A stretch of 64,000 nucleotides of DNA from Cyanobacteria bacterium VAR_87_metabat_62. Lineage in GTDB: Bacteria; Cyanobacteriota; Cyanobacteriia; Cyanobacteriales; Microcoleaceae. Below are positions 12,209-36,310 of the stretch, one piece after another. Both the position numbers and the translations under genes were made by a program. Within the stretch, counting starts at the first letter, position 1. Each line of letters begins with the position of its first letter. The notes beneath the pieces are model-generated. The model saw nothing but the letters and a program-made list of their open reading frames with translations, was not told the origin of the DNA and ran no database searches. The stretch is from positions 4 to 64,003 of the forward strand of contig JANPMV010000001.1 in NCBI GenBank assembly GCA_031427135.1. Direction: 5' to 3'.

Positions 12209-14272
12209 ATGAGTCAAGATCGCAAAACACCAGGCCGTTGGTCTGCATCAGAATCCTTGGAGTCAAAAAAGGATACTTCATCGCTCGTGCCGCTTCCAGC
12301 CCGGAAAAACCGCGCTGAGCGACTCAGAGAGATCCGAGATTTGGTTATTTCAGGAAAATTGCCGCCAGGGCGTCTGAGACTACCGCCGAAAGAGTCTGAA
12401 GAAAACTCGCAGCCGCCGGGAGAATACAATCCGTTGTGGCGGATCTTCTTGAAGAAATGGCAGTTTTGGCTGGCGGTGAGTTTGATTATGTCGGTGGGTA
12501 TGGGGTTTGTGGCAATTTCGTCTTTGCTCAACTTGACCTCGCAATCGAATTGCTCGAAGATTTTTTGGCCGACGGCTTCGGCTAACGATCGCTTTTTTTG
12601 CGCTCAAGAAGCCGCTAGCAAGCGGACAGCAGATGATTTGCTGCGCGCGATCGAATTAGTGAATGCTTTGCCGCCCGACCACCCGCTGCGACCGAGAATT
12701 AACGGTCAAATCGATCGCTGGTCGCAGGATATTCTCAGGCTGGGAAATGCTAGTTTCCAAGAAGGAAAGCTGGAGGAGGCGATCGCGATCGCCCGCAAGA
12801 TTCCTCAAAACGTGCCAGCTTACCCGACGGTGCAAAAGCAGATTGAAAAGTGGCAGTCGATATGGAGCGATGCAGAGAAAACTTACCGCACGGCGGAAGA
12901 CCATTTGCGTCAGGAAGAGTGGGCGCAGGCTTTTCGCCAAGCTACTCTGCTTTTGGATTCTGGAAATACTTTCTGGGAATCGGCTAAGTACGAGGAACTG
13001 ACTAAGGTAATTGAGGCGACAAAGGCTGAGGGCAATAAGTTGGTAAAAGCCCGGAATACAGCTTCGGAGGGAGGACTCGACAATCTGGTGACGGCGATTA
13101 AGCTGGCTCAGGGAATCGGTCAAAATAGTTATTTGTATCAATCTGCCAATAAGACGATCGCCGAATTTAGCAAGAAAATTATGGCGATCGCCCAAAAACG
13201 GTTGCAAGCTGGCGATTGGCAGCAGGCGGCGGCGATCGCGAATCAGATTCCCGATTCGGCAAATTTAAATGAGCAAGTTCAGGATTTTAACCAGTTGGCA
13301 AATGCTACTTCTCAGGCTTTGACCGGTTCTGTGGATGGTTTGTCCAAGGCGATCGAGATTGCTCAAAAGTTGAACGCGGGTCGCCCTTTATACAAACAAG
13401 CTCAAGATTCAGTTGGCCGCTGGCAGCAAGAAATGGCTGATGTGAAAGTTTTGGAGCTCGCAAGCAGGCTGGCTGCGCCTGGAGGGGTAAAAGATTTGAG
13501 GGCTGCGATCGCCCAATTGCAAACAGTCCCCGAATCAAATCCCCGAAGAGCAGAAGTTCGCAGTCAAATTAGCCGCTTGAGCCGTCAAATCGAGCTGCTC
13601 GAAGATAGTCCGTTTATGCAAAGAGCTAACGATTTGGCAAATACGGGCGATCCGAATTCTCTGGAGGCCGCCGTGGCTCAAGCTTCTAGGATCGCTCAAG
13701 GTAGGGCGCTTTACGGGGAAGCTCAGGGCAAAATTCAAGCTTGGATCGAGAGGAGACAGCGGCTTGTCGATCAGCCGTTTTTGGAGAGAGCTCAGCAACT
13801 AGCGGCGAGGGGCAATTTGGCGGAGGCAATTGAGATGGCGCGCCGGATCAGATCGGGACGGGTGCTTTATGAGGAAGCTCGATCGAACATCCGCAATTGG
13901 GAAGCTCAATTTCAGGGCGAGCAAGGTTTGCAGAGCGCTCGTCAGGCGGCCCGAGCCGGGACTGCTGACGCTTTGCAATCGGCAATTTCCCTTGCCCTTC
14001 AGGTGCCCGATTCGAGTTCGCTCCGGTGGCAGGCGACTGAGGCGATTGATGAGTGGAGCCAGCGGATTTTGGCGATTGGTGTGGAACAGTCGTCGTCGGA
14101 TGTGGCTGGGGCGATCGCGACTTTGAAGAAGATTCCCTCGGGCTCTCGCGCTTTTGAGCAAGCTCGATCGCAAATCCAAGTTTGGCAGGAGTCGCTGAAT
14201 CCTCCGGCTGCTGAGTCTCCTGCTCCCGTTCCCCCGGAAACCGAGCCTGAGAGCAGGTCTGGAACCCGCTAG
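12209..14272 (+). CDS. membrane-anchored repeat protein, function unknown
   Basis: 687 aa, one TM near residue 90, then about 10 degenerate repeats ending in ...Y..A...I..W(Q). Confidence 0.6.
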   Translation: MSQDRKTPGRWSASESLESKKDTSSLVPLPARKNRAERLREIRDLVISGKLPPGRLRLPPKESEENSQPPGEYNPLWRIFLKKWQFWLAVSLIMSVGMGFVAISSLLNLTSQSNCSKIFWPTASANDRFFCAQEAASKRTADDLLRAIELVNALPPDHPLRPRINGQIDRWSQDILRLGNASFQEGKLEEAIAIARKIPQNVPAYPTVQKQIEKWQSIWSDAEKTYRTAEDHLRQEEWAQAFRQATLLLDSGNTFWESAKYEELTKVIEATKAEGNKLVKARNTASEGGLDNLVTAIKLAQGIGQNSYLYQSANKTIAEFSKKIMAIAQKRLQAGDWQQAAAIANQIPDSANLNEQVQDFNQLANATSQALTGSVDGLSKAIEIAQKLNAGRPLYKQAQDSVGRWQQEMADVKVLELASRLAAPGGVKDLRAAIAQLQTVPESNPRRAEVRSQISRLSRQIELLEDSPFMQRANDLANTGDPNSLEAAVAQASRIAQGRALYGEAQGKIQAWIERRQRLVDQPFLERAQQLAARGNLAEAIEMARRIRSGRVLYEEARSNIRNWEAQFQGEQGLQSARQAARAGTADALQSAISLALQVPDSSSLRWQATEAIDEWSQRILAIGVEQSSSDVAGAIATLKKIPSGSRAFEQARSQIQVWQESLNPPAAESPAPVPPETEPESRSGTR

Positions 14273-27642: not shown

Positions 27643-29193
27643 ATGCCACGCTGGTTCAATACCGCAGGCCCTTGCCAGGAAGACATTCATTATGCACTGC
27701 CGCCCACGGTGCGCTTACCGGGCTTAGAACGTTTAATTGCTCAACGCAGCTATTTCGTCATCCACGCACCCCGACAAGTGGGAAAAACCACGGCCATGCT
27801 GGCCTTAGCCAAACAACTTACCCTGGGCGGACAATACACAGCCGTCATGCTGTCCGTGGAAGTGGGCGCACCCTTCAGTCAAGACATAGCTGGTGCTGAA
27901 GATGCCATTCTGGGTGCTTGGCGAGACAATATTTCCGTCCGTCTCCCACCCGAATTACAACCGCCCGACTGGACAAGCATACAGTCGGGACAGAAAATTC
28001 GGGCTGCTTTACAAGCTTGGGCACAAGTTTCATCTCGTCCTTTGGCTATTTTCATCGACGAAATTGACGCATTACAAGACCAAGCATTGATTTCTATCCT
28101 GCGCCAATTACGAGATGGTTATCCCAATCGCCCGAAAGCGTTTCCTCAATCGGTAGGTTTAATCGGTTTGCGGGATGTTCGCGATTACAAAGTGGCTGCC
28201 GGTGGTAGCGATCGCCTCAATACATCCAGTCCGTTTAATATTAAAGTGCGATCGATTACTCTCAGAGATTTCAATGCTTCAGAAGTCGCAGAACTCTACG
28301 CGCAACATACCCAGGATACCGGACAAGTTTTTACACCGGAAGCCGTAGCATTAGCTTTTGAATTAACACAAGGACAACCTTGGTTGGTGAATGCTTTAGC
28401 TAAAGAAATCGTCGAAGAATTAGTTATTGATGAATCTATAGAAATTACACCACAACATATTTTATCAGCTAAAGAAACTCTGATCAAACGACAAGATACA
28501 CATTTAGATAGTTTGGCAGAACGACTTAGAGAAAAACGAGTCAAAGCAATTATCGAGCCGATACTAGCCGGACAAGAATTGCCAGAATCTTCTAATGACG
28601 ATCGCCAATACCTCGTAGATTTGGGTTTGCTAAAACGAGATCCGGCCGGGGGCTTAGTTATTGCTAATCCGATTTATCGAGAAGTGTTGCCGCGAGTTTT
28701 GGCCCAAGGCCCGCAAGATAGTTTACCGATGATCAGTCCGAGTTGGTTGAATCCTCGCGGTGAACTGATCACCGAAGCACTCCTGCAAGCGTTTCTCGCC
28801 TTCTGGCTGCAACATGGCGAACCGTTACTCAAAAGCGCGTCTTATCCCGAAATTGCCCCGCATTTGGTATTGATGGCATTTCTGCATCGGGTGATTAATG
28901 GTGGGGGAACGTTGGAGAGGGAATATGCGATCGGGCGCGACAGAATGGATTTATGTTTGCGTTATGGTGAGGTAACATTGGGCATTGAACTGAAGGTTTG
29001 GCGGACTCGGAAAGTCGATCCTTTGAGTAAAGGGTTGGAACAGTTAGATGGGTATTTGGCTCGATTGGGACAAGATTCCGGTTGGTTGGTGATATTCGAT
29101 CGCAGAGATAATGCACTCGAATTGGAAGAGCGATTGAAAACCGAACTTCAGGTTAGTCCAATGGGAAGAACGATTACAGTCATTCGTGCGTGA
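27643..29193 (+). CDS. AAA-ATPase-like protein with a C-terminal PD-(D/E)xK-like domain
   Basis: 516 aa. MPRWFNTAGPC start, Walker A APRQVGKTT, Walker B IFIDEIDAL. Confidence 0.7.
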   Translation: MPRWFNTAGPCQEDIHYALPPTVRLPGLERLIAQRSYFVIHAPRQVGKTTAMLALAKQLTLGGQYTAVMLSVEVGAPFSQDIAGAEDAILGAWRDNISVRLPPELQPPDWTSIQSGQKIRAALQAWAQVSSRPLAIFIDEIDALQDQALISILRQLRDGYPNRPKAFPQSVGLIGLRDVRDYKVAAGGSDRLNTSSPFNIKVRSITLRDFNASEVAELYAQHTQDTGQVFTPEAVALAFELTQGQPWLVNALAKEIVEELVIDESIEITPQHILSAKETLIKRQDTHLDSLAERLREKRVKAIIEPILAGQELPESSNDDRQYLVDLGLLKRDPAGGLVIANPIYREVLPRVLAQGPQDSLPMISPSWLNPRGELITEALLQAFLAFWLQHGEPLLKSASYPEIAPHLVLMAFLHRVINGGGTLEREYAIGRDRMDLCLRYGEVTLGIELKVWRTRKVDPLSKGLEQLDGYLARLGQDSGWLVIFDRRDNALELEERLKTELQVSPMGRTITVIRA

Positions 29194-29499
29194 GGAAGTT
29201 ATAATGAGTGTGTCGATTTTGGCGATCGCCGAGGGTGTGCGATCGACTCTAATCTCAAATATAATAAAGATAGCTTGTTTCAGTGCGACGGCTGAAGTGT
29301 TTGAGTCGAATCGTGTAGCGAACTCGATCGAGGAAAGAAGATTCCGATGGGGAGTAAGAAGGGGTTGACATACATCATCGAGCTGCGATATTATTCGACT
29401 ATATCCAGTATAGTACCGCAACTGCGATACAATTATAAGTTCTACGGCTTGAATGCGGCAAAGTAAAAAAAGTCATTATGCAACAAAAAAAGTGTGATG

Positions 29500-29607
29500 A
29501 TATAGCAATCCTAAATAAATGAGTCGTAAAATTTTTACCCCACCCCAACCCTCCCCTTACCAAGGGGAGGGAGTAAGAAATTCACAAATGATTTAGGATT
29601 GCTATAT
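29500..29607. repeat. 108-bp hairpin element with a 17-bp perfect terminal inverted repeat
   Basis: ATATAGCAATCCTAAAT (29500-29516) versus ATTTAGGATTGCTATAT (29591-29607), enclosing CCCCTTACCAAGGGG. Confidence 0.8.
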
Positions 29608-29671
29608 ATGTGCAATACTTGCGTTATATGTGTAAAACAGGCAAATTCCAGCCCATGACTTGAGGTGAGAA

Positions 29672-31033
29672 ATGGTTGAATCTAAGGAGCGTATTCTAAA
29701 TCTATATAATTCTTTGGAAAATGATTTTATCAAACTAATTCCACAAGAACGGTTCAACAAAGATGTGAATATGAAGCTAGAGCGAATCACTCATCTACTG
29801 GAAGTCTTGGGAAATCCGCATAACTCTTTTCTATCTATTCATGTTGGAGGTACATCAGGCAAGGGATCTACTTCTACGTTAATTGCGTCAATCTTAACCA
29901 CACAGGGCTATAAAACAGGGCTTTATTTATCCCCTCACTTGCAGATATTTAACGAGGTGTATCAGATTAACTGTAAAACAGTTGCGACCACAAAGCTTGT
30001 CGAGATATTTGAACGAGTGAAATCGGCTATAGTGAAAGTTGCTCAGGAAAACCCCTTTGGTCAGCCTAGCTATTTTGAAGCACAAGTAGCTTTGGCATTC
30101 TGCTTATTTGAAGAGCAAAAAGTTGATGTCGCAATTATCGAAGTTGGTTTAGGGGGAAGACTTGATGCCACAAACGTCTTGTCCTCAAAATTATCGGTAC
30201 TTACAAGTGTTGGATTAGATCACACCGAAATATTGGGAGGTACTGTAGAAGAAATCGCTGAAGAGAAGGCAGGCATTATCAAAGATCTTCAGAATGTGGT
30301 GTGTGGATTCTCTCAAAGAACGACAAGAGAGATTGTTGCACAACGTTGCGAAAAGAGCGGTTCTCAATTATGGCAATTAGAGGAAGACTTCTCATTTACT
30401 GTTAATTCGGGGTCTTTAAGTGTAAATCTTCCAGAGAGAGTTTACGATAATTTATCGCTAACCAAACTTCTCGGAGAGTTTCAGTTCTCTAACGCAGCTT
30501 GCGCTGTCGCAGCAGCTTATTTATTTTCACAAGGTAGCTTATCTGATTTTGCTGTCAGGGAAGGGTTAGCTAATGTCATAATCCCAGGTCGAATGGAAAT
30601 ATTACAAACCCAGCCAGTTGTAATACTTGATGGTGCGCATAATCCCGACAAGATGAGATCTGCTTCACATTCAGTTAACAAATTATTTGGAGGTAAAGAA
30701 AGAGTTATAATCATTTCTTTCAAAGAGGGAAAGCTTCTTGAAGATATATTGCCTTATCTCGTAGATAATGTGAAATGCTTCATATTGACAGCGTTTAAGA
30801 TTAAAGGATTGTGGGAGCCATGTCCACCTGAAGAATTGAAGAAGGTTATTGACAGCGTTGCCCCATCTGTGCCATGCTTCATAGTGCGCGATCCAATTAG
30901 TGCGGTTCGAGAGGGTTTATCTAGAGCGGCAGAGAATGATCTAGTATGGATTACTGGTTCTCTTTATCTCGCTGGTGATGTGCGTGAGTATTGGCATCCA
31001 TCAGAATCTTTGCTCATGAGAGCAGAGGAATAA
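29672..31033 (+). CDS. FolC-type Mur-ligase family protein (folylpolyglutamate synthase-like)
   Basis: 453 aa. LERITHLLEVLGNP...IHVGGTSGKGST P-loop context and VILDGAHNP motif. AT-rich and HIP1-free. Confidence 0.85.
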   Translation: MVESKERILNLYNSLENDFIKLIPQERFNKDVNMKLERITHLLEVLGNPHNSFLSIHVGGTSGKGSTSTLIASILTTQGYKTGLYLSPHLQIFNEVYQINCKTVATTKLVEIFERVKSAIVKVAQENPFGQPSYFEAQVALAFCLFEEQKVDVAIIEVGLGGRLDATNVLSSKLSVLTSVGLDHTEILGGTVEEIAEEKAGIIKDLQNVVCGFSQRTTREIVAQRCEKSGSQLWQLEEDFSFTVNSGSLSVNLPERVYDNLSLTKLLGEFQFSNAACAVAAAYLFSQGSLSDFAVREGLANVIIPGRMEILQTQPVVILDGAHNPDKMRSASHSVNKLFGGKERVIIISFKEGKLLEDILPYLVDNVKCFILTAFKIKGLWEPCPPEELKKVIDSVAPSVPCFIVRDPISAVREGLSRAAENDLVWITGSLYLAGDVREYWHPSESLLMRAEE

Positions 31034-31080
31034 CAGATTAGAACATATATCCAAGATTTATTAGAACTATCGAATCAATC

Positions 31081-32019
31081 ATGCAAAATTCACAAAGATC
31101 AATTGTTAAAATAATTAAAGAAGTCTGTCTAGAAAATAACATATCTTATGAATCTTTTTCATACGACTGGATATTTCGTTTATCGAGAGATAGCACAGCA
31201 GTACACATTTTTGGCTATCAGTTCGAGAAAAATTCATCTACATCGCATCTAATTTGCTCTGACAAGTGTAGTGCGAGTGATTTATTACAATTGAGTCAAG
31301 TGCCTGTCGTAGAACATACCTTTTTTATGTCACCAGTAAACATAAAGTATGTTGGTGTTTCTGGTAATTGGTCAAAATTATGCGAGTTGCTTAATCGGCA
31401 TGGAAAACTCGTATGTAAATCGAATGAGGGAACAGGTGGTAATGATGTCTACCTTGTTACAAATCAATTTGAGCTTGAGAATGCCGAATACAAAATATAC
31501 AATCGCTCCAGAGCGATGGCAGTGTGTCCGTTTTACGAAATAGAGAATGAGTTTCGGGTTGTGGTGCTAGATGGGAAAGTTAAATTAGTCTATCGGAAAA
31601 ACATTCCTTATTTATTAGGCGATGGAGTATCTACTTTACGCCAGCTCTTTGTTGCTTACCTCAAAGAAAACATAGATTGTCCAGTTAGTTGTAATATTCC
31701 TGATGAAGATTATTCTAAAATCCTTGATTCTGGCAAGAAGTATGACTTGCATTGGAAACATAATCTTGGACAAGGAGCAAACCCGGAAATTGTTCAAGAT
31801 AAAGAACTTGTTGGACGATTAAGTGATTTAGCATTGCGCGCAGCTAAAGTTGTAAATATTCACTTCGCGTCAATAGATATAATAGAAACTAACAATCAAT
31901 ATTTGGTTCTAGAAATAAATAGTGGTGTGATGATGGAGCATTTTTCTCAGTTGAATGACAGTAACTATAAGAGAGCTAAAGATATTTATAAAGAAGCTAT
32001 TGAAAGTATGCTTAGTTAA
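31081..32019 (+). CDS. ATP-grasp ligase
   Basis: 312 aa. KSNEGTGGNDVY, EFRVVVLDGKVKLVYRK, LLGDGVSTLRQL and LEINSGV match the ATP-grasp layout. Confidence 0.7.
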   Translation: MQNSQRSIVKIIKEVCLENNISYESFSYDWIFRLSRDSTAVHIFGYQFEKNSSTSHLICSDKCSASDLLQLSQVPVVEHTFFMSPVNIKYVGVSGNWSKLCELLNRHGKLVCKSNEGTGGNDVYLVTNQFELENAEYKIYNRSRAMAVCPFYEIENEFRVVVLDGKVKLVYRKNIPYLLGDGVSTLRQLFVAYLKENIDCPVSCNIPDEDYSKILDSGKKYDLHWKHNLGQGANPEIVQDKELVGRLSDLALRAAKVVNIHFASIDIIETNNQYLVLEINSGVMMEHFSQLNDSNYKRAKDIYKEAIESMLS

Positions 32020-32028
32020 GGTGAAAAT

Positions 32029-33030
32029 ATGCGGAAGCAACTACTAATGCCTGTTCTATTAACCGTTGCTCAAAAAATAGGAATGAAAATTCTGATTGAA
32101 CCAACAAGAGCAATGTACGGAGTTATCCTATTCGATAGTGGGAAGAAGTATTACATCAAGGATGTTAATTTTAATCTCAACTTGAGTGCCTCAACTTCAC
32201 TTGCAAAAAACAAAGCTGCGACATCTTTTTTTCTTGAGAAATTCGGATATCAAGTACCCGAATTTACTATGGTATATAGTGACGAGAAATGTGCTCGAAC
32301 TCAATCTAATGATACTCTTCAAGAAGGATTAGACTACTCAAGACGAATTGGCTTTCCCGTGATTCTTAAGCCAAATAATATGTCACAGGGCAGCTTTGTT
32401 TTTAAAGTTAACGACGAATCGGAATATTTTAGCTTTTTGTCAGAAATTTTCACGTACTGTGACACGGCTCAGATTCAGAAGTTTTATTCTGGTAATGACT
32501 ACAGAATAGTAGTTTTAGATAGGAGAGTGCTATCTGCTTATCAAAGAGTTCCTTTCCATGTTATAGGTGATGGAGATTCTTCTATATCTGAATTAATTTG
32601 TAAGAAACAACGATTATTCGTACAGTCTGGTAGAGACACTAAATTGATAGATACTGATACACGCCTTGCTCATAAAATCCTTCAGCAAGGTCTTTCGCTA
32701 GAGAGCATACCTGGTCTTAATGAAACAGTTATCTTGCAAGATATTTCAAACTTGTCGGCTGGAGGGGAAACTATTGAACTCACAGATGAAATACATCCTT
32801 CTTTTGTAAAACTAGCGTTGCTGATTGCAAGAGATATGAATTTAACTTTATGCGGCATTGATATAATCACAAATGATATCACGCAGCAAAATGATGGTCA
32901 GTATACTGTTATTGAGGTTAATAGCGCACCTGGATTAGATAACTATGCGTATCAAGGTGCGGTGCAAGAAGCATATGTAGAAAGTTTGTACCGAGAAGTC
33001 TTGCTTTATATTAGAAATTCATACTCCTAA
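32029..33030 (+). CDS. ATP-grasp ligase resembling the cyanophycin-synthetase ATP-grasp domain
   Basis: 333 aa. VILKPNNMSQG, DYRIVVLDRRVLSAYQR, VIGDGDSSISELI, NLSAGGE and IEVNSAPG are colinear with CphA/RimK-type ATP-grasp enzymes. Confidence 0.8.
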   Translation: MRKQLLMPVLLTVAQKIGMKILIEPTRAMYGVILFDSGKKYYIKDVNFNLNLSASTSLAKNKAATSFFLEKFGYQVPEFTMVYSDEKCARTQSNDTLQEGLDYSRRIGFPVILKPNNMSQGSFVFKVNDESEYFSFLSEIFTYCDTAQIQKFYSGNDYRIVVLDRRVLSAYQRVPFHVIGDGDSSISELICKKQRLFVQSGRDTKLIDTDTRLAHKILQQGLSLESIPGLNETVILQDISNLSAGGETIELTDEIHPSFVKLALLIARDMNLTLCGIDIITNDITQQNDGQYTVIEVNSAPGLDNYAYQGAVQEAYVESLYREVLLYIRNSYS

Positions 33031-33288
33031 TTAGTTTGGGGTAGTTAAACGTAACTAAGTCAGGTTTTGCAAAACCCTAATAAACCTTATTAGATAAGAA
33101 TTATAGGCTAATTTGAATTTTGAAATATAACTCAGTATTCAACCCAAACCTACTTAGAATAGTCTATTAGGTGGCTACCAGCCGTAGAACAAACCTAGTG
33201 CAGCGGACGGTATCGAGATCTTGGTTGTGATGCCAAGGTCATCTGCCGCCGCTGACTAGGAACGTTATCTCGCAAACGCTGTCTGATT

Positions 33289-33320
33289 TTGGAGATAATT
33301 CGGAAGCTCGATCGAGAGTT
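33289..33320 (+). repeat. direct repeat R1, copy a
   Basis: TTGGAGATAATTCGGAAGCTCGATCGAGAGTT, matched at 35245-35276. Confidence 0.75.
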
Positions 33321-33357
33321 TGACCTACGGAAAATTGGTAGAATAAATAGAGACGCT

Positions 33358-33425
33358 CGATCGCACAAGGTCGAAGAACGATCGCCTGATTCGGAGATTT
33401 TGTCAGGAGTTGGGGATTGAGGTGC
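33358..33425 (+). repeat. direct repeat R2, copy a
   Basis: GATCGCACAAGG..GAACGATCGCCTGATTCGGAGATTTTGTCAGGAGTTGGGGATTGAGGTGC, about 90% identical to 34189-34256. Confidence 0.8.
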
Positions 33426-33485
33426 TTTTATAATCTAGGCAATAAAAATACTATTTTGCTAAATTGTTAACAACACTCAAAAAAA

Positions 33486-33782
33486 GTGAACACCATGCTT
33501 AACCTCTCCCATAGCCGTCCCCTGAACCAATTTCAACAGGAAGCTCCTGAGTTGCTTCATCAGTTTGAAACAGATAAAACACCAATCGTAATCACCATTA
33601 ATGGTAAAGCGGTTGCTGTGCTTCAGGATGCGGAAAGTTATGAAAAACTACTTAATCGGTTAGAACTTCTTGAAACTCTTGCAGGTATTCGTCAAAGCTT
33701 AGGGGAATTCGATCGAGGCAAAGGGGTTTCTATTCATCAAGCTTTTGAAGAGCTTCAAAAAAAATATGACCTACCGAGTTGA
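33486..33782 (+). CDS. Phd/YefM-family antitoxin
   Basis: 98 aa. PIVITINGKAVAVLQDAESYEKLL pattern. Overlaps the downstream toxin ORF. Confidence 0.8.
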   Translation: MNTMLNLSHSRPLNQFQQEAPELLHQFETDKTPIVITINGKAVAVLQDAESYEKLLNRLELLETLAGIRQSLGEFDRGKGVSIHQAFEELQKKYDLPS

Positions 33783-34103
33783 GATATCTCCTACTGCTAT
33801 TCATGACATAGAAAATATATTTTTGTGGCTCAAGCTCAATGCTCCTGAAAAATCCTATCGTTGGGGTAGGGGCTGTTATGAAATAATGCTCAAACTGGAA
33901 AGCTTTCCTAGTCGTTGTCCCTTGGCATTAGAAAGTGAGTATTTGGAGCTGGAAATACGTCAACTTTTATATGAGAAGAAATATCGTATTTTAGTATCGT
34001 AGAAGATGAAAATACTAGAATGGTTAAAATTCACCGCGTTCGCCACAGTTCTCAACAAAGTTTTGATTCTTTAAAACAGCTTTTGGATAATGATGAAGAG
34101 TAA
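33766..34103 (+). pseudogene. ParE/RelE-family toxin gene interrupted by a frameshift near 33996-34002
   Basis: MTYRVEISPTAIHDIENIF...YRILVS* continues in another frame as VEDENTRMVKIHRVRHSSQ... Confidence 0.65.
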
Positions 34104-34188
34104 AAATGTTCTTGTGTTGTGATTTCTGAGTTTAAGGGCGATCGGACATCGAAGACTTTGGCCGATCGCCTTAGAGTTACAATCTATG

Positions 34189-34256
34189 GATCGCACAATG
34201 CAGGAGAACGATCGCCTGATTCGGCGATTTTGTCAGGAGTTGGAGATTGAGGTGCC
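34189..34256 (+). repeat. direct repeat R2, copy b
   Basis: See 33358-33425. Confidence 0.8.
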
Positions 34257-34286
34257 GTTTTAGGGAATGGAGGAGTATTTTCAAAG

Positions 34287-35228
34287 ATGGAGACTCAACT
34301 ATACGATAAATTCATTCAAAAGGTAATTATTTTAGGTAAACAAAAGGAATTTTCATTAACCTCTTCGATCGACAACTATTTAATGATGAATTATCGGCTT
34401 AAATTAGAACGAATCGATAAACTAAAAGCTTGGCTAGATGGGTTTAGACCGTTCGATTCCACCCTCATCGCGGAACTCAAAAAGCTCTATGATGTTCGCT
34501 TTACTTATAACTCAAATGCCATTGAGGGTAATACTTTAACCCAAAGTGAAACGGAATTAGTTTTAACGAAGGGCATTACTGTGGGGGGCAAAACCCTTGA
34601 CGAACATTTAGAAGTTATTGGACATAAGGAGGCGATCGATTATATTGAAAATTTAGCCCAAAGGGATACGGAGATTAATGAATGGGAAATTAAGCAAATT
34701 CACAATCTGATTCTCCGCAAAATTAACCCTGACGAAGCGGGTGGTTATCGCACTCTGGATGTGATGGCGGCAGGAACGAACTATCGTTATCCTCCCCATT
34801 ATTTACTGTCTCAATTAATGGGGGATTTTGCGATCTGGCTCAACTCGGAATCTGCTTTAAGGCTCCATCCAGTCGAATATGCAACGATCGCTCATTATCG
34901 TTTTGTTTCTATCCATCCTTTTCGCGATGGTAATGGTCGAAGCGCTAGATTATTAATGAATTTACTCTTGATCCGTGCCGGCTATCCGATCGTGGTGATT
35001 GACAACCAAATTCGCAATGATTATATTAATGCTTTAGCCTACGGGCAACAAAATCAAGACGATTTAAGCCAGTTGTTTGGATTGATTTTTGATGCTACGA
35101 TTAGTTCGCTTGTGGAAGTTTTAAGATTATTGGTGACTGCAAGTAGCAGCAGGGGAAAGGAACAGGCTTTTTATCAGGAGATTACTGATTTTCTCGATCG
35201 CAGCGGTGGTTTAGGTAATGGGGAATAG
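34287..35228 (+). CDS. Fic-family protein (AMPylase/phosphotransferase fold)
   Basis: Canonical Fic motif HPFRDGNGRSARLLMN. Confidence 0.9.
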   Translation: METQLYDKFIQKVIILGKQKEFSLTSSIDNYLMMNYRLKLERIDKLKAWLDGFRPFDSTLIAELKKLYDVRFTYNSNAIEGNTLTQSETELVLTKGITVGGKTLDEHLEVIGHKEAIDYIENLAQRDTEINEWEIKQIHNLILRKINPDEAGGYRTLDVMAAGTNYRYPPHYLLSQLMGDFAIWLNSESALRLHPVEYATIAHYRFVSIHPFRDGNGRSARLLMNLLLIRAGYPIVVIDNQIRNDYINALAYGQQNQDDLSQLFGLIFDATISSLVEVLRLLVTASSSRGKEQAFYQEITDFLDRSGGLGNGE

Positions 35229-35244
35229 GTAATTTTGCCTCACC

Positions 35245-35276
35245 TTGGAGATGGTTCGGAAGCTCGATCGAGAATT
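35245..35276 (+). repeat. direct repeat R1, copy b
   Basis: TTGGAGATGGTTCGGAAGCTCGATCGAGAATT. Confidence 0.75.
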
Positions 35277-35392
35277 AAGGATTCCGTAGGAGATTCCGAT
35301 CGAGCTTTATCCTGCCCAAAAACAAAGAAAAAGCCGCCCTAAAAGGACGGGACTTTAGCTCTCCGCTACGCTCCGCTCATTACCAACAACTA

Positions 35393-36310
35393 TCAAGGCA
35401 ACTCAACCGAACTCGGTTTAGCAATATGAGGTAATCCCCAACCCAATTTTTCCCGCAAAATGTGGAAAAATTCAAAAGGCTGCACCCTCACGAAGCGGGC
35501 GCGGTAGGGAGCTCGCTCAATTTGCACCCAATCCTCCGGCAGAACATAACATCCGCCGTTCCCGTCTACCACCATTACCAGGCGGTTCGGACTCGCAGGC
35601 AAAATCTTCACCGGCTCGGTGTTGCTAAACACCAAGGCGCGCGAAGCCATAGAATGAGGGCAAAGAGGGACTAACTGCAACACTGGCACTCCCGGAATAA
35701 TTACAGGGCCGCCGGCTGACAGCGCGTAGGCTGTCGATCCCGTCGGAGTCGAGATAATTACCCCATCTGCGGCAATGTCAACAGAGGCGTGTTGCCCGAT
35801 CGCCACTTCAAAATGACACATACAAGTCAACGGTTCCCGATGCAGCACCATTTCATTGAGACAAAGCGCTTCCCAGAGACAGTCGTTTTCTCGAAACAGC
35901 CGCACGGCCAGCATCGATCTTTCTTCTATTTCGTATTCTCCGGCGATCGCCTTTTCCAAAGCTTGCGGCAGCAAGTTCAGGTAAGTTTCTGTTAAAAAGC
36001 CCATGTGACCGGTATTGACAGTCAGCAGTGGCACTCCGATGGGAGCAACTTGGCGAAATGCCGACAGCACGGTACCGTCGCCGCCCAAAACCACTGCAAA
36101 CTCCATGTCGCTGTCAAAACCGGGGGGGACGAGTTGGTCGATCGGAGTATGGCACATTGGGCGATCGGGGCTAGAATAGCCCAGAATTCCTCCAGAACCA
36201 GAAACCGAGCAGACATCCCAGCCGCGGGCAATCAGCTTGTCTTGTAACTCTGTGGCGATGCGACAAGCCACAGGTTTAACATCGTTGTATATAATTCCAG
36301 CTTTCGGCAC
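35393..36310 (-). CDS. nadK: NAD kinase
   Basis: 305 aa. [10 protein letters not shown] motif and the NadK C-terminal beta-sandwich pattern. Confidence 0.92.

Follow-up and report, generated by a model that had tools for sequence, protein, structure and literature searches.

What is made by three adjacent ATP-dependent ligases in an AT-rich part of a cyanobacterial genome? The question is raised by positions 29,672 to 33,030 of the 64-kb stretch of Cyanobacteria bacterium VAR_87_metabat_62 that was analysed here (contig JANPMV010000001.1; the whole stretch is referred to as the window). The three genes, together the trio, encode a FolC-family folylpolyglutamate/dihydrofolate synthase (FolC) followed by two ATP-grasp ligases, AG1 and AG2. 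Our favoured reading, held tentatively and with a confidence a little short of even, is that the trio is a mobile cassette for making or altering the amino-acid tail of folate, or that of a near relative among the pteroyl or glutamyl cofactors.

A FolC and two ATP-grasp ligases in one operon

All three genes lie on the forward strand, exactly where the initial annotation had placed them (Table 1), with 47 nt between folC and AG1 and 9 nt between AG1 and AG2. These short gaps suggest that the trio is co-transcribed. A Shine–Dalgarno sequence (GAGG) is found upstream of folC. The proposal that the operon encodes three ATP-dependent amide ligases was borne out, since each of the three families is represented with its catalytic motifs intact.

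FolC scores 344.9 bits with the folC model TIGR01499 (cutoff 162.65), covering profile positions 1–400 of 400, and contains the Pfam domains Mur_ligase_M (PF08245) and Mur_ligase_C (PF02875). It aligns end to end with Thermotoga maritima FolC (1o5z; about 45% identity, E 1.7e-69) and keeps the P-loop, the SPHL loop, EVGLGGRLDATN, EKAGIIK and DGAHNP of that enzyme; the P-loop reads GTSGKGS instead of GTNGKGS. The E. coli-type equivalog model PRK10846 gives 195.6 bits, below its cutoff of 360, and the models of PgsB, CphA and CfbE give only 26–40 bits. On sequence grounds, the first open reading frame (ORF) of the trio is a bona fide FolC-subfamily ligase. In a scan of PHROGs, FolC matched a phage family of unknown function and the two ATP-grasp proteins gave weak RimK-like matches only.

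AG1 and AG2 have no dedicated Pfam or NCBIfam family and are annotated publicly as ‘hypothetical protein’ or, wrongly, as ‘cyanophycin synthetase’. Scanning Pfam and NCBIfam with AG1 returned a weak match to the RimK ATP-grasp, confined to the C-terminal part; neither AG1 (50.2 bits) nor AG2 (65.1 bits) reaches the cutoff of 143.4 for the RimK family model TIGR00768. AG2 is colinear with positions 207–448 of the cyanophycin synthetase model (E 1.7e-47), as the initial annotation had recognised for the ATP-grasp domain of that enzyme. It also matches the GshF (GshAB) model (E 9e-38), N-acetylglutaminylglutamine synthetase and sequences in the PDB. The structure prediction that had been recommended gave confident AlphaFold2 (AF2) models, with a predicted local distance difference test score (pLDDT) of 87 for AG1 and 83.7 for AG2 and a predicted template modelling score (pTM) of 0.84 for both. 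In Foldseek searches the G domain of CphA1/CphA2 and the ATP-grasp domain of GshF were the closest folds to both models, followed by ArgX/LysX, Ddl and RimK; E-values against CphA, GshF, Ddl, RimK and ArgX range from 1e-11 to 1e-22.

The Mg/ATP residues of AG1 (K113, D266, E278, N280 and the NLGQG loop) are invariant in 26 homologues, and the catalytic residues of AG2 (K114/D278/E296/N298) are invariant across its homologues. Both proteins show the features that define the ATP-grasp superfamily, namely the fold, the conserved Lys, the Asp/Glu/Asn Mg triad and the NLxxGG loop. In the ATP-grasp branch to which they belong, the characterised enzymes (CphA-G, GshF, Ngg and RimK among them) phosphorylate a peptide-like acceptor at a C-terminal carboxylate and join an amino acid to it. 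Relatives of AG1 are widespread, occurring in at least 415 species genomes, among them many gut Lachnospiraceae.

Recurrence of the trio and its folate-gene neighbours

The neighbourhoods of AG1 and AG2 were surveyed at 80 genome loci and 80 metagenome loci. An exact-sequence look-up placed the proteins of the trio in Microcoleus metagenome-assembled genomes and isolates (PH2017 series, CAWBG58). Judged by consecutive accession numbers, FolC-AG1-AG2 occurs in at least 11 Microcoleus assemblies, and it is also present in the sister genome L002 (RDYN01000012, Oscillatoriales/Microcoleus). The same order is found in L085, on a contig of 49.6% GC that is devoid of HIP1 (highly iterated palindrome 1, GCGATCGC). 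One unrelated ORF is inserted between FolC and AG1 in L168/L169, which are flanked by TniQ and MerR. The order in L084 is dcd, folK-folP, folC, an inserted ORF, AG1 and AG2, with thyX adjoining. The FolK-FolP fusion of this locus scores equally on the dihydropteroate synthase (DHPS) and Sul4 models; we take it to represent a Chloroflexi-type native folate operon, as the origin of sul4 points to. The inserted ORFs (283 aa in L084, 403 aa in L168) are mutually unrelated and of no firm family, and they were dropped as core members.

Partial versions of the arrangement are also seen. In Symploca sp. SIO1B1 the gene behind FolC (84% identity) and AG1 (82%) encodes another ATP-grasp, which belongs to the RimK family. 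In L170, L171/L172, L082 and L167, FolCs of the trio's clade are paired directly with a subtype of AG2 (36–45% identical to AG2). AG1 and AG2 are adjacent at 12 of the 80 genome loci and 15 of the 80 metagenome loci, and they are fused into single proteins of 654–656 aa in L069, L131 and L164. By the Rosetta-stone argument such fusions suggest that the two act together. The initial annotation had asked whether the trio is conserved as a unit and had named its absence elsewhere as fatal to the proposal; the unit recurs in the Microcoleus assemblies and L002, and in the unrelated contigs L084, L085 and L168/L169. Relatives on plasmids (PLSDB) reach at most 34% identity and are mis-annotated as ‘cyanophycin synthetase’ or are Ngg-like, with uninformative context. 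A phage origin was dropped because profile scans of IMG/VR viral contigs with AG1 and AG2 gave no relatives. Literature searches returned no paper describing a module of FolC and ATP-grasp ligases.

It might be supposed that the trio holds an ordinary copy of folC, active in routine folate glutamylation, and that AG1 and AG2 have no connection with it (they could, for instance, modify a protein C-terminus as RimK-like enzymes do) and share the island by chance. The canonical nature of FolC, the lack of a second folC within the 64-kb window and the similarity of AG1 and AG2 to the RimK family would all agree with this, as would the mostly stand-alone occurrence of AG1, beside housekeeping-type genes, in Lachnospiraceae and Anaerolineae. 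We nevertheless consider chance association improbable. It sits poorly with the gaps of 47 and 9 nt, with the recurrence of FolC-AG linkage in several gene orders on contigs of differing composition (37.7–49.6% GC), and with the pairing of AG2 relatives with non-homologous folate glutamate ligases described below. Mainstream cyanobacterial FolCs are absent from the top 120 matches of the trio's FolC. Vertical inheritance of this folC copy is further disfavoured by the base composition of the trio and by its greater likeness between Microcoleus genomes (see the last section).

We note that two FolC-subfamily genes lie side by side in L082 (8001–12681), a HIP1-bearing and presumably cyanobacterial contig. 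One product (461 aa) is 75% identical to the FolC of the window; the other is divergent (418 aa, 27% identical, 216 bits with TIGR01499). A stand-alone AG2-type ligase follows the pair and adjoins rpsL-rpsG-fusA-tuf.

The link to folate was followed through stand-alone AG2-like genes in metagenomes, whose products are 37–45% identical to AG2. A CofE-like gene (F420_ligase, 237 aa) adjoins the AG2-like gene in 21 metagenome loci and a FolC-subfamily gene does so in 4. Solo loci were counted as informative if each side had 1.5 kb or more of flanking sequence (n = 30), and in 16 of these a folate gamma-glutamate ligase of FolC or CofE type lies no more than 830 bp away. The ligase neighbours occur in convergent, divergent and tandem orientations. 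The FolC-type neighbour scores 292 bits with TIGR01499. The CofE-like neighbours score 213/181 bits with TIGR04132, ‘putative folate metabolism gamma-glutamate ligase’, as against 143/135 bits with F420 CofE. AG2-like proteins next to either type form a single, moderately related clade (median identity 64.5%), within which the neighbour is a folate glutamate ligase of one or the other of two unrelated folds. In the 21 loci the FolC position is held by relatives of FolC2 (COG1478, Chlamydia CT611; TIGR04132), a non-orthologous folate glutamate ligase. These CPR-type (candidate phyla radiation) proteins score 181–213 bits, below the TIGR04132 cutoff of 350, and FolC2 is absent from the window. 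De Crécy-Lagard et al. (PMC1971073) showed that CT611 of Chlamydia, a CofE homologue, can stand in for FolC in a folC mutant of E. coli.

Other folate genes are found in the same company. A gene for 5-formyltetrahydrofolate cyclo-ligase (PF01812, E 1e-36) overlaps the end of AG2-AG1 in L020, thyX lies beside an AG2-like gene in L095 and folKP does so in L103. In L177 the genes AG2b, FRG, ATP-grasp, thyA and folA are consecutive; their island bears an integrase and also contains, some 13 kb away, a FolC of the window's clade. Genes for gamma-glutamyl chemistry are also seen: a GGACT-domain (gamma-glutamyl cyclotransferase) protein follows AG1-AG2 in L089, and NlpC/P60 proteins occur at five loci. 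The initial annotation had offered two functions, a poly- or oligo-amino-acid product and a modified glutamyl tail on a folate- or cofactor-like acceptor. The ligase found at 16 of 30 loci, together with folKP, thyX, thyA-folA and the cyclo-ligase, favours the second; a cyanophycin-like polyamide was not upheld.

Several observations weigh against a role on folate. AG1 stands alone at 67 of the 80 genome loci, and many AG2 homologues are also alone in neighbourhoods that carry no folate signal. A folate glutamate ligase adjoins none of the 24 AG1+AG2 pairs that lack FolC, and among these only L020, with its cyclo-ligase, has any folate gene alongside. Part of the CofE/FolC adjacency signal is shared ancestry and not a set of independent events, because the adjacent AG2-like proteins belong to one clade. 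The nearest characterised relatives of AG1 and AG2 (the CphA G domain, GshF and Ngg) act on peptides, not on cofactors. The module is often found in defence or mobile islands (Fic, toxin-antitoxin, TIR, ORC-CDC6-like/HD-CE, Mrr, FRG, TniQ), a setting that would also fit a conflict-related role. All assignments of substrate and product proceed by association and gene context and are to be taken as provisional.

The genes next to stand-alone AG1 (valS, methyltransferase, spoIIA/sigF, threonine synthase, dGTPase) were rejected as a functional signal and are attributed to lineage-specific synteny. In ten Lachnospiraceae loci (L029, L035, L036, L040, L041, L050, L067, L070, L075 and L079) threonine synthase is upstream of AG1 and a dGTPase-like HD protein downstream, at a median distance of 12 nt. 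Another group of Lachnospiraceae has AG1 about 1.4 kb downstream of valS, where folC is located in Bacillus subtilis.

Proposed chemistry and known tail ligases

In the scheme that we favour, FolC would carry out the standard reaction of its family, in which ATP drives the attachment of L-glutamate either to dihydropteroate or, through the gamma-carboxyl, to the glutamyl tail of folate. AG1 and AG2 would then each form an acyl phosphate at a terminal carboxylate of this tail and attach another amino acid; our default assumption is an alpha-linked glutamate. Working in succession, the two would add one or two residues, giving a capped or mixed-linkage folate tail. The acceptor (folate), the residue added, its linkage, the order of action and the physiological benefit are inferred. 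The trio is best read as working like known cofactor-tail ligase systems while belonging to none of them.

The reaction scheme has precedents. In the CofE/CofF (F420) and MptN (tetrahydromethanopterin) systems a gamma-glutamyl ligase builds the tail and an ATP-grasp enzyme adds an alpha-linked L-glutamate cap. AG1 and AG2 have weak but significant matches to MptN, CofF and RimK-family models, and AG2 relatives adjoin CofE-like ligases. The scores are nonetheless well below the cutoffs, at 24.6 bits (AG1) and 28.5 bits (AG2) against 300 for CofF (TIGR04443) and at 44.3 and 43.4 bits against 350 for MptN (NF040720). The trio differs further: in fold, AG1 and AG2 are nearest to CphA-G/GshF and not to RimK; folate is the presumed cofactor; a FolC of the Mur fold serves as gamma-ligase; and there are two ATP-grasps. 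According to the consulted part of PMC8141765, two different ATP-grasp ligases, MyfA and MyfB, act in sequence on the polyglutamate side chain of methylofuran, a C1-carrier cofactor. The cofactor and the organisms differ from those considered here, and the same part of that paper reports no FolC-type partner; the likeness is one of reaction scheme, with homology at the level of the superfamily.

The distal part of the folate tail in E. coli is reported to contain alpha linkages (Ferone 1986, as cited in PMC1971073). The reaction that we propose for AG1 and AG2 is that of an E. coli enzyme activity, folylpoly-alpha-glutamate synthetase (Ferone et al. 1986). Our literature searches found no gene for this alpha-glutamate folate-tail activity in E. 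coli. To our knowledge, the synthetase is known only as an enzyme activity with no gene assigned.

Cyanophycin synthetase is another of the closest systems. The G domain of CphA1/CphA2 is the best sequence and structural match of AG2 and the best structural match of AG1, and CphA1 likewise combines ATP-grasp and Mur-ligase chemistry. That enzyme is, however, a single polypeptide of ~870–900 aa with N, G and M domains (TIGR02068 / NF010623). With TIGR02068 (cutoff 850) AG2 scores 162 bits and AG1 40.7 bits, in both cases over the G domain only, and FolC scores 39.8 bits. The trio consists of separate proteins, it has neither the N nor the M domain, a canonical FolC stands in the place of the latter, and there is no sign of a polymer product. 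A cyanophycin-like polymerase was rejected on the grounds of the canonical FolC and the absent domains. The ATP-grasp domain of GshF, also a top sequence and structural match of AG1 and AG2, extends a gamma-glutamyl peptide by an amino acid at its C-terminal carboxylate. AG2 reaches 130.1 bits with the GshF model NF002688 (cutoff 425), over the C-terminal ATP-grasp part only, and the GshA domain is absent; the genomic context of AG1 and AG2 is folate and not thiol metabolism.

These comparisons bear on a further possibility, that the product of the cassette is unrelated to folate and is a small free peptide or a short polyamide, such as a gamma-glutamyl tri- or tetrapeptide, a solute resembling glutathione or N-acetylglutaminylglutamine amide (NAGGN), or a cyanophycin-like oligomer. 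A recruited FolC paralogue would add glutamate and the ATP-grasps would extend the C-terminus. The closest characterised relatives of AG1 and AG2, namely the CphA1/CphA2 G domain, GshF and N-acetylglutaminylglutamine synthetase, do make peptides, and there is precedent for Mur-fold ligases that came to act on substrates other than folate (PgsB, CfbE and the CphA M-domain). The gamma-glutamyl cyclotransferase domain protein that follows AG1-AG2 in L089 would also suit such a product. We regard a free peptide as unlikely all the same. FolC scores twice the cutoff of the FolC subfamily and is far from the PgsB, CphA and CfbE models, the N and M domains of CphA are missing, and the trio has no conserved companion gene for an exporter, a peptidase or a precursor. 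Nor would a free peptide explain why relatives of AG2 repeatedly adjoin FolC2/CofE-like ligases, folKP, thyX, thyA-folA and the cyclo-ligase.

Folate tails govern the retention of the cofactor in cells and the tightness of its binding to enzymes. As far as we know, the tails are taken to be polyglutamates with gamma linkages throughout, the products of FolC or FolC2. Should AG1 and AG2 attach some other cap, there would be a widespread unannotated layer of folate chemistry. A bolder version of the folate reading, which we put forward as rather doubtful, is that AG1 and AG2 are the missing gene families for non-gamma extension of folate tails (alpha-Glu or another cap). Capped folates would then be made by Microcoleus, Anaerolineae, Lachnospiraceae, low-GC and probably Patescibacteria metagenome lineages, and the mobile cassette (FolC with AG1/AG2, sometimes with ThyX, ThyA-DHFR or FolKP) would supply a private folate pool for thymidylate synthesis that is hard for hydrolases or inhibitors to attack. 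Were the folate reading true, an orphan enzyme activity would acquire candidate genes, and biocatalysis would gain two new amide ligases. The presence of the cassette on mobile islands, sometimes near thymidylate synthase, dihydrofolate reductase (DHFR) or Sul4-like FolKP, raises a possible effect on antifolate susceptibility or competition for folate. Even if the link to folate fails, AG1-AG2 is a conserved two-enzyme system with no assigned product.

The island and its other genes

The trio is visibly more AT-rich than its surroundings, as had been pointed out, with 37.2% GC compared to 45.4% for the rest of the window. The GC content at third codon positions (GC3) of FolC, AG1 and AG2 is 0.33, 0.28 and 0.29, and that of the flanking era and nadK genes is 0.58 and 0.55. 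Values for the AAA ATPase, the toxin-antitoxin pair and the Fic gene are intermediate.

The initial annotation also took the lack of HIP1 sites as a sign of foreign origin. HIP1 occurs 45 times in the window, some 40-fold over-represented relative to the 1.1 copies expected from shuffles, and the gap around the trio (29229–35943, 6721 bp) is real and is the longest in the window. Random placement of 45 sites gives a maximal gap of this length in 27% of cases, so the gap is weak evidence (P = 0.27); it was dropped as statistical proof of foreign origin, with which it is consistent. Overlapping HIP1 octamers are present at 12779–12792 (GCGATCGCGATCGC).

Comparison with L002 is more informative. 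Positions 28800–35233 of the window are 95–97% identical to that genome, compared with 89.4% on the era side and 88.1% on the nadK side; the block of high identity starts at 28800, within the 3′ end of the AAA ATPase gene. The island thus shares a more recent common ancestry than its surroundings, which suggests recent exchange between Microcoleus lineages. Horizontal acquisition, as initially proposed, is supported by both the composition and this identity pattern. We note that L002 carries about 1.6 kb of extra sequence between era and the AAA gene.

Table 1 Features of the trio and its surroundings in the window
Feature	Positions	Strand	Basis and remarks
AAA ATPase (AAA_16/AAA_35)	27643..29193	+	Pfam; left edge of variable region; context, outside the module
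Best sigma-70-like promoter match	29365..29394	+	TTGACA-18-TATTAT, 11/12; upstream of operon; consensus match only
108-nt inverted-repeat (hairpin or MITE-like) element	29500..29607	.	Between promoter-like site and folC
FolC-family folylpolyglutamate/dihydrofolate synthase, 453 aa	29672..31033	+	TIGR01499, Mur_ligase_M and Mur_ligase_C
AG1, ATP-grasp ligase of uncharacterised family, 312 aa	31081..32019	+	RimK-like C-terminal match, AF2 fold
AG2, ATP-grasp ligase like CphA G domain and GshF, 333 aa	32029..33030	+	Cyanophycin synthetase model, Foldseek
Phd/YefM antitoxin and overlapping 85-aa ORF, putative toxin-antitoxin pair	33486..34002	+	Context
Fic-domain protein	34287..35228	+	Pfam Fic, E 1.4e-20; right edge of low-GC island; context

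The features around the trio are collected in Table 1. Promoter-like sites around the operon are no more numerous than expected from shuffled sequence. The 108-nt element has perfectly complementary arms of 17 nt separated by 74 nt, and its interior holds a C-rich/G-rich palindrome (CCCCACCCCAACCCTCCCC...GGGGAGGGAG); it looks like a small cyanobacterial miniature inverted-repeat transposable element (MITE) or hairpin repeat. Of the bordering features named by the initial annotation, the hairpin, the AAA ATPase and the Fic gene were recovered; toxin-antitoxin modules had been given in the plural and only one was seen. The ORF downstream of its antitoxin (33745–34002) has no Pfam match and is a putative toxin by position only. 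L002, collinear in other respects, lacks exactly the 846-bp segment that contains the pair (33342–34187), and the junction lies at its position 12263; by this alignment, the toxin-antitoxin pair in the island is a recent gain or loss.

Such a setting raises the idea that the ATP-grasp pair, with or without FolC, serves in conflict or defence, either by altering or sequestering the supply of folate or thymidylate during phage infection or by tagging a target molecule. The Fic gene of the window, which matches the SoFic and PDC-S04 models of PADLOC, and the toxin-antitoxin pair would be in keeping with this. So would neighbours at other loci: a TIR protein (L088), LRR-TIR-like proteins (L114/L117/L127), a weak Abi_alpha-like insert, ORC-CDC6-like/HD-CE/methylase modules (L084, L086, L095), Mrr, FRG and integrase (L177), and TniQ. 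We consider a defence function very improbable. FolC, AG1 and AG2 match no model in PADLOC (PADLOC-DB v2), no relatives were found in the IMG/VR viral contigs, and the defence neighbours vary from locus to locus, as expected of cargo on variable islands and not of a fixed system. For these reasons we read them as island cargo. Many AG1 and AG2 genes also lie in core-genome contexts.

Some of these neighbours have features of their own. In three unrelated contigs (L084 6613–11682, L095 2220–7183 and L086 11284–16605) a module of an unknown protein of ~300–330 aa and an ORC-CDC6-like ATPase (PF24389) lies beside FolC/AG2 genes. An HD-CE protein (PF24391) and a DNA methylase belong to the module in L084 and L086, and thyX precedes it in L084 and L095; this may be a defence or mobile module with its own thymidylate synthase. 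L177 (828–10874) is on the same 6.27-Mb contig as L086, about 13 kb from it. Its integrase-bearing island encodes a RecD2-like helicase, a DUF4365 protein, an Mrr nuclease, an AG2-type ligase, an FRG-domain protein, a second ATP-grasp, ThyA and a DHFR, whose best models are trimethoprim-resistance Dfr families, all scoring below cutoff. A TIR_2 protein (L088 3355–4383) directly precedes an AG1-AG2 pair, and a leucine-rich-repeat protein with a TIR-like C-terminus directly follows AG1-AG2 in L114 (11013–12404), L117 (2032–3423) and L127 (8689–10080).

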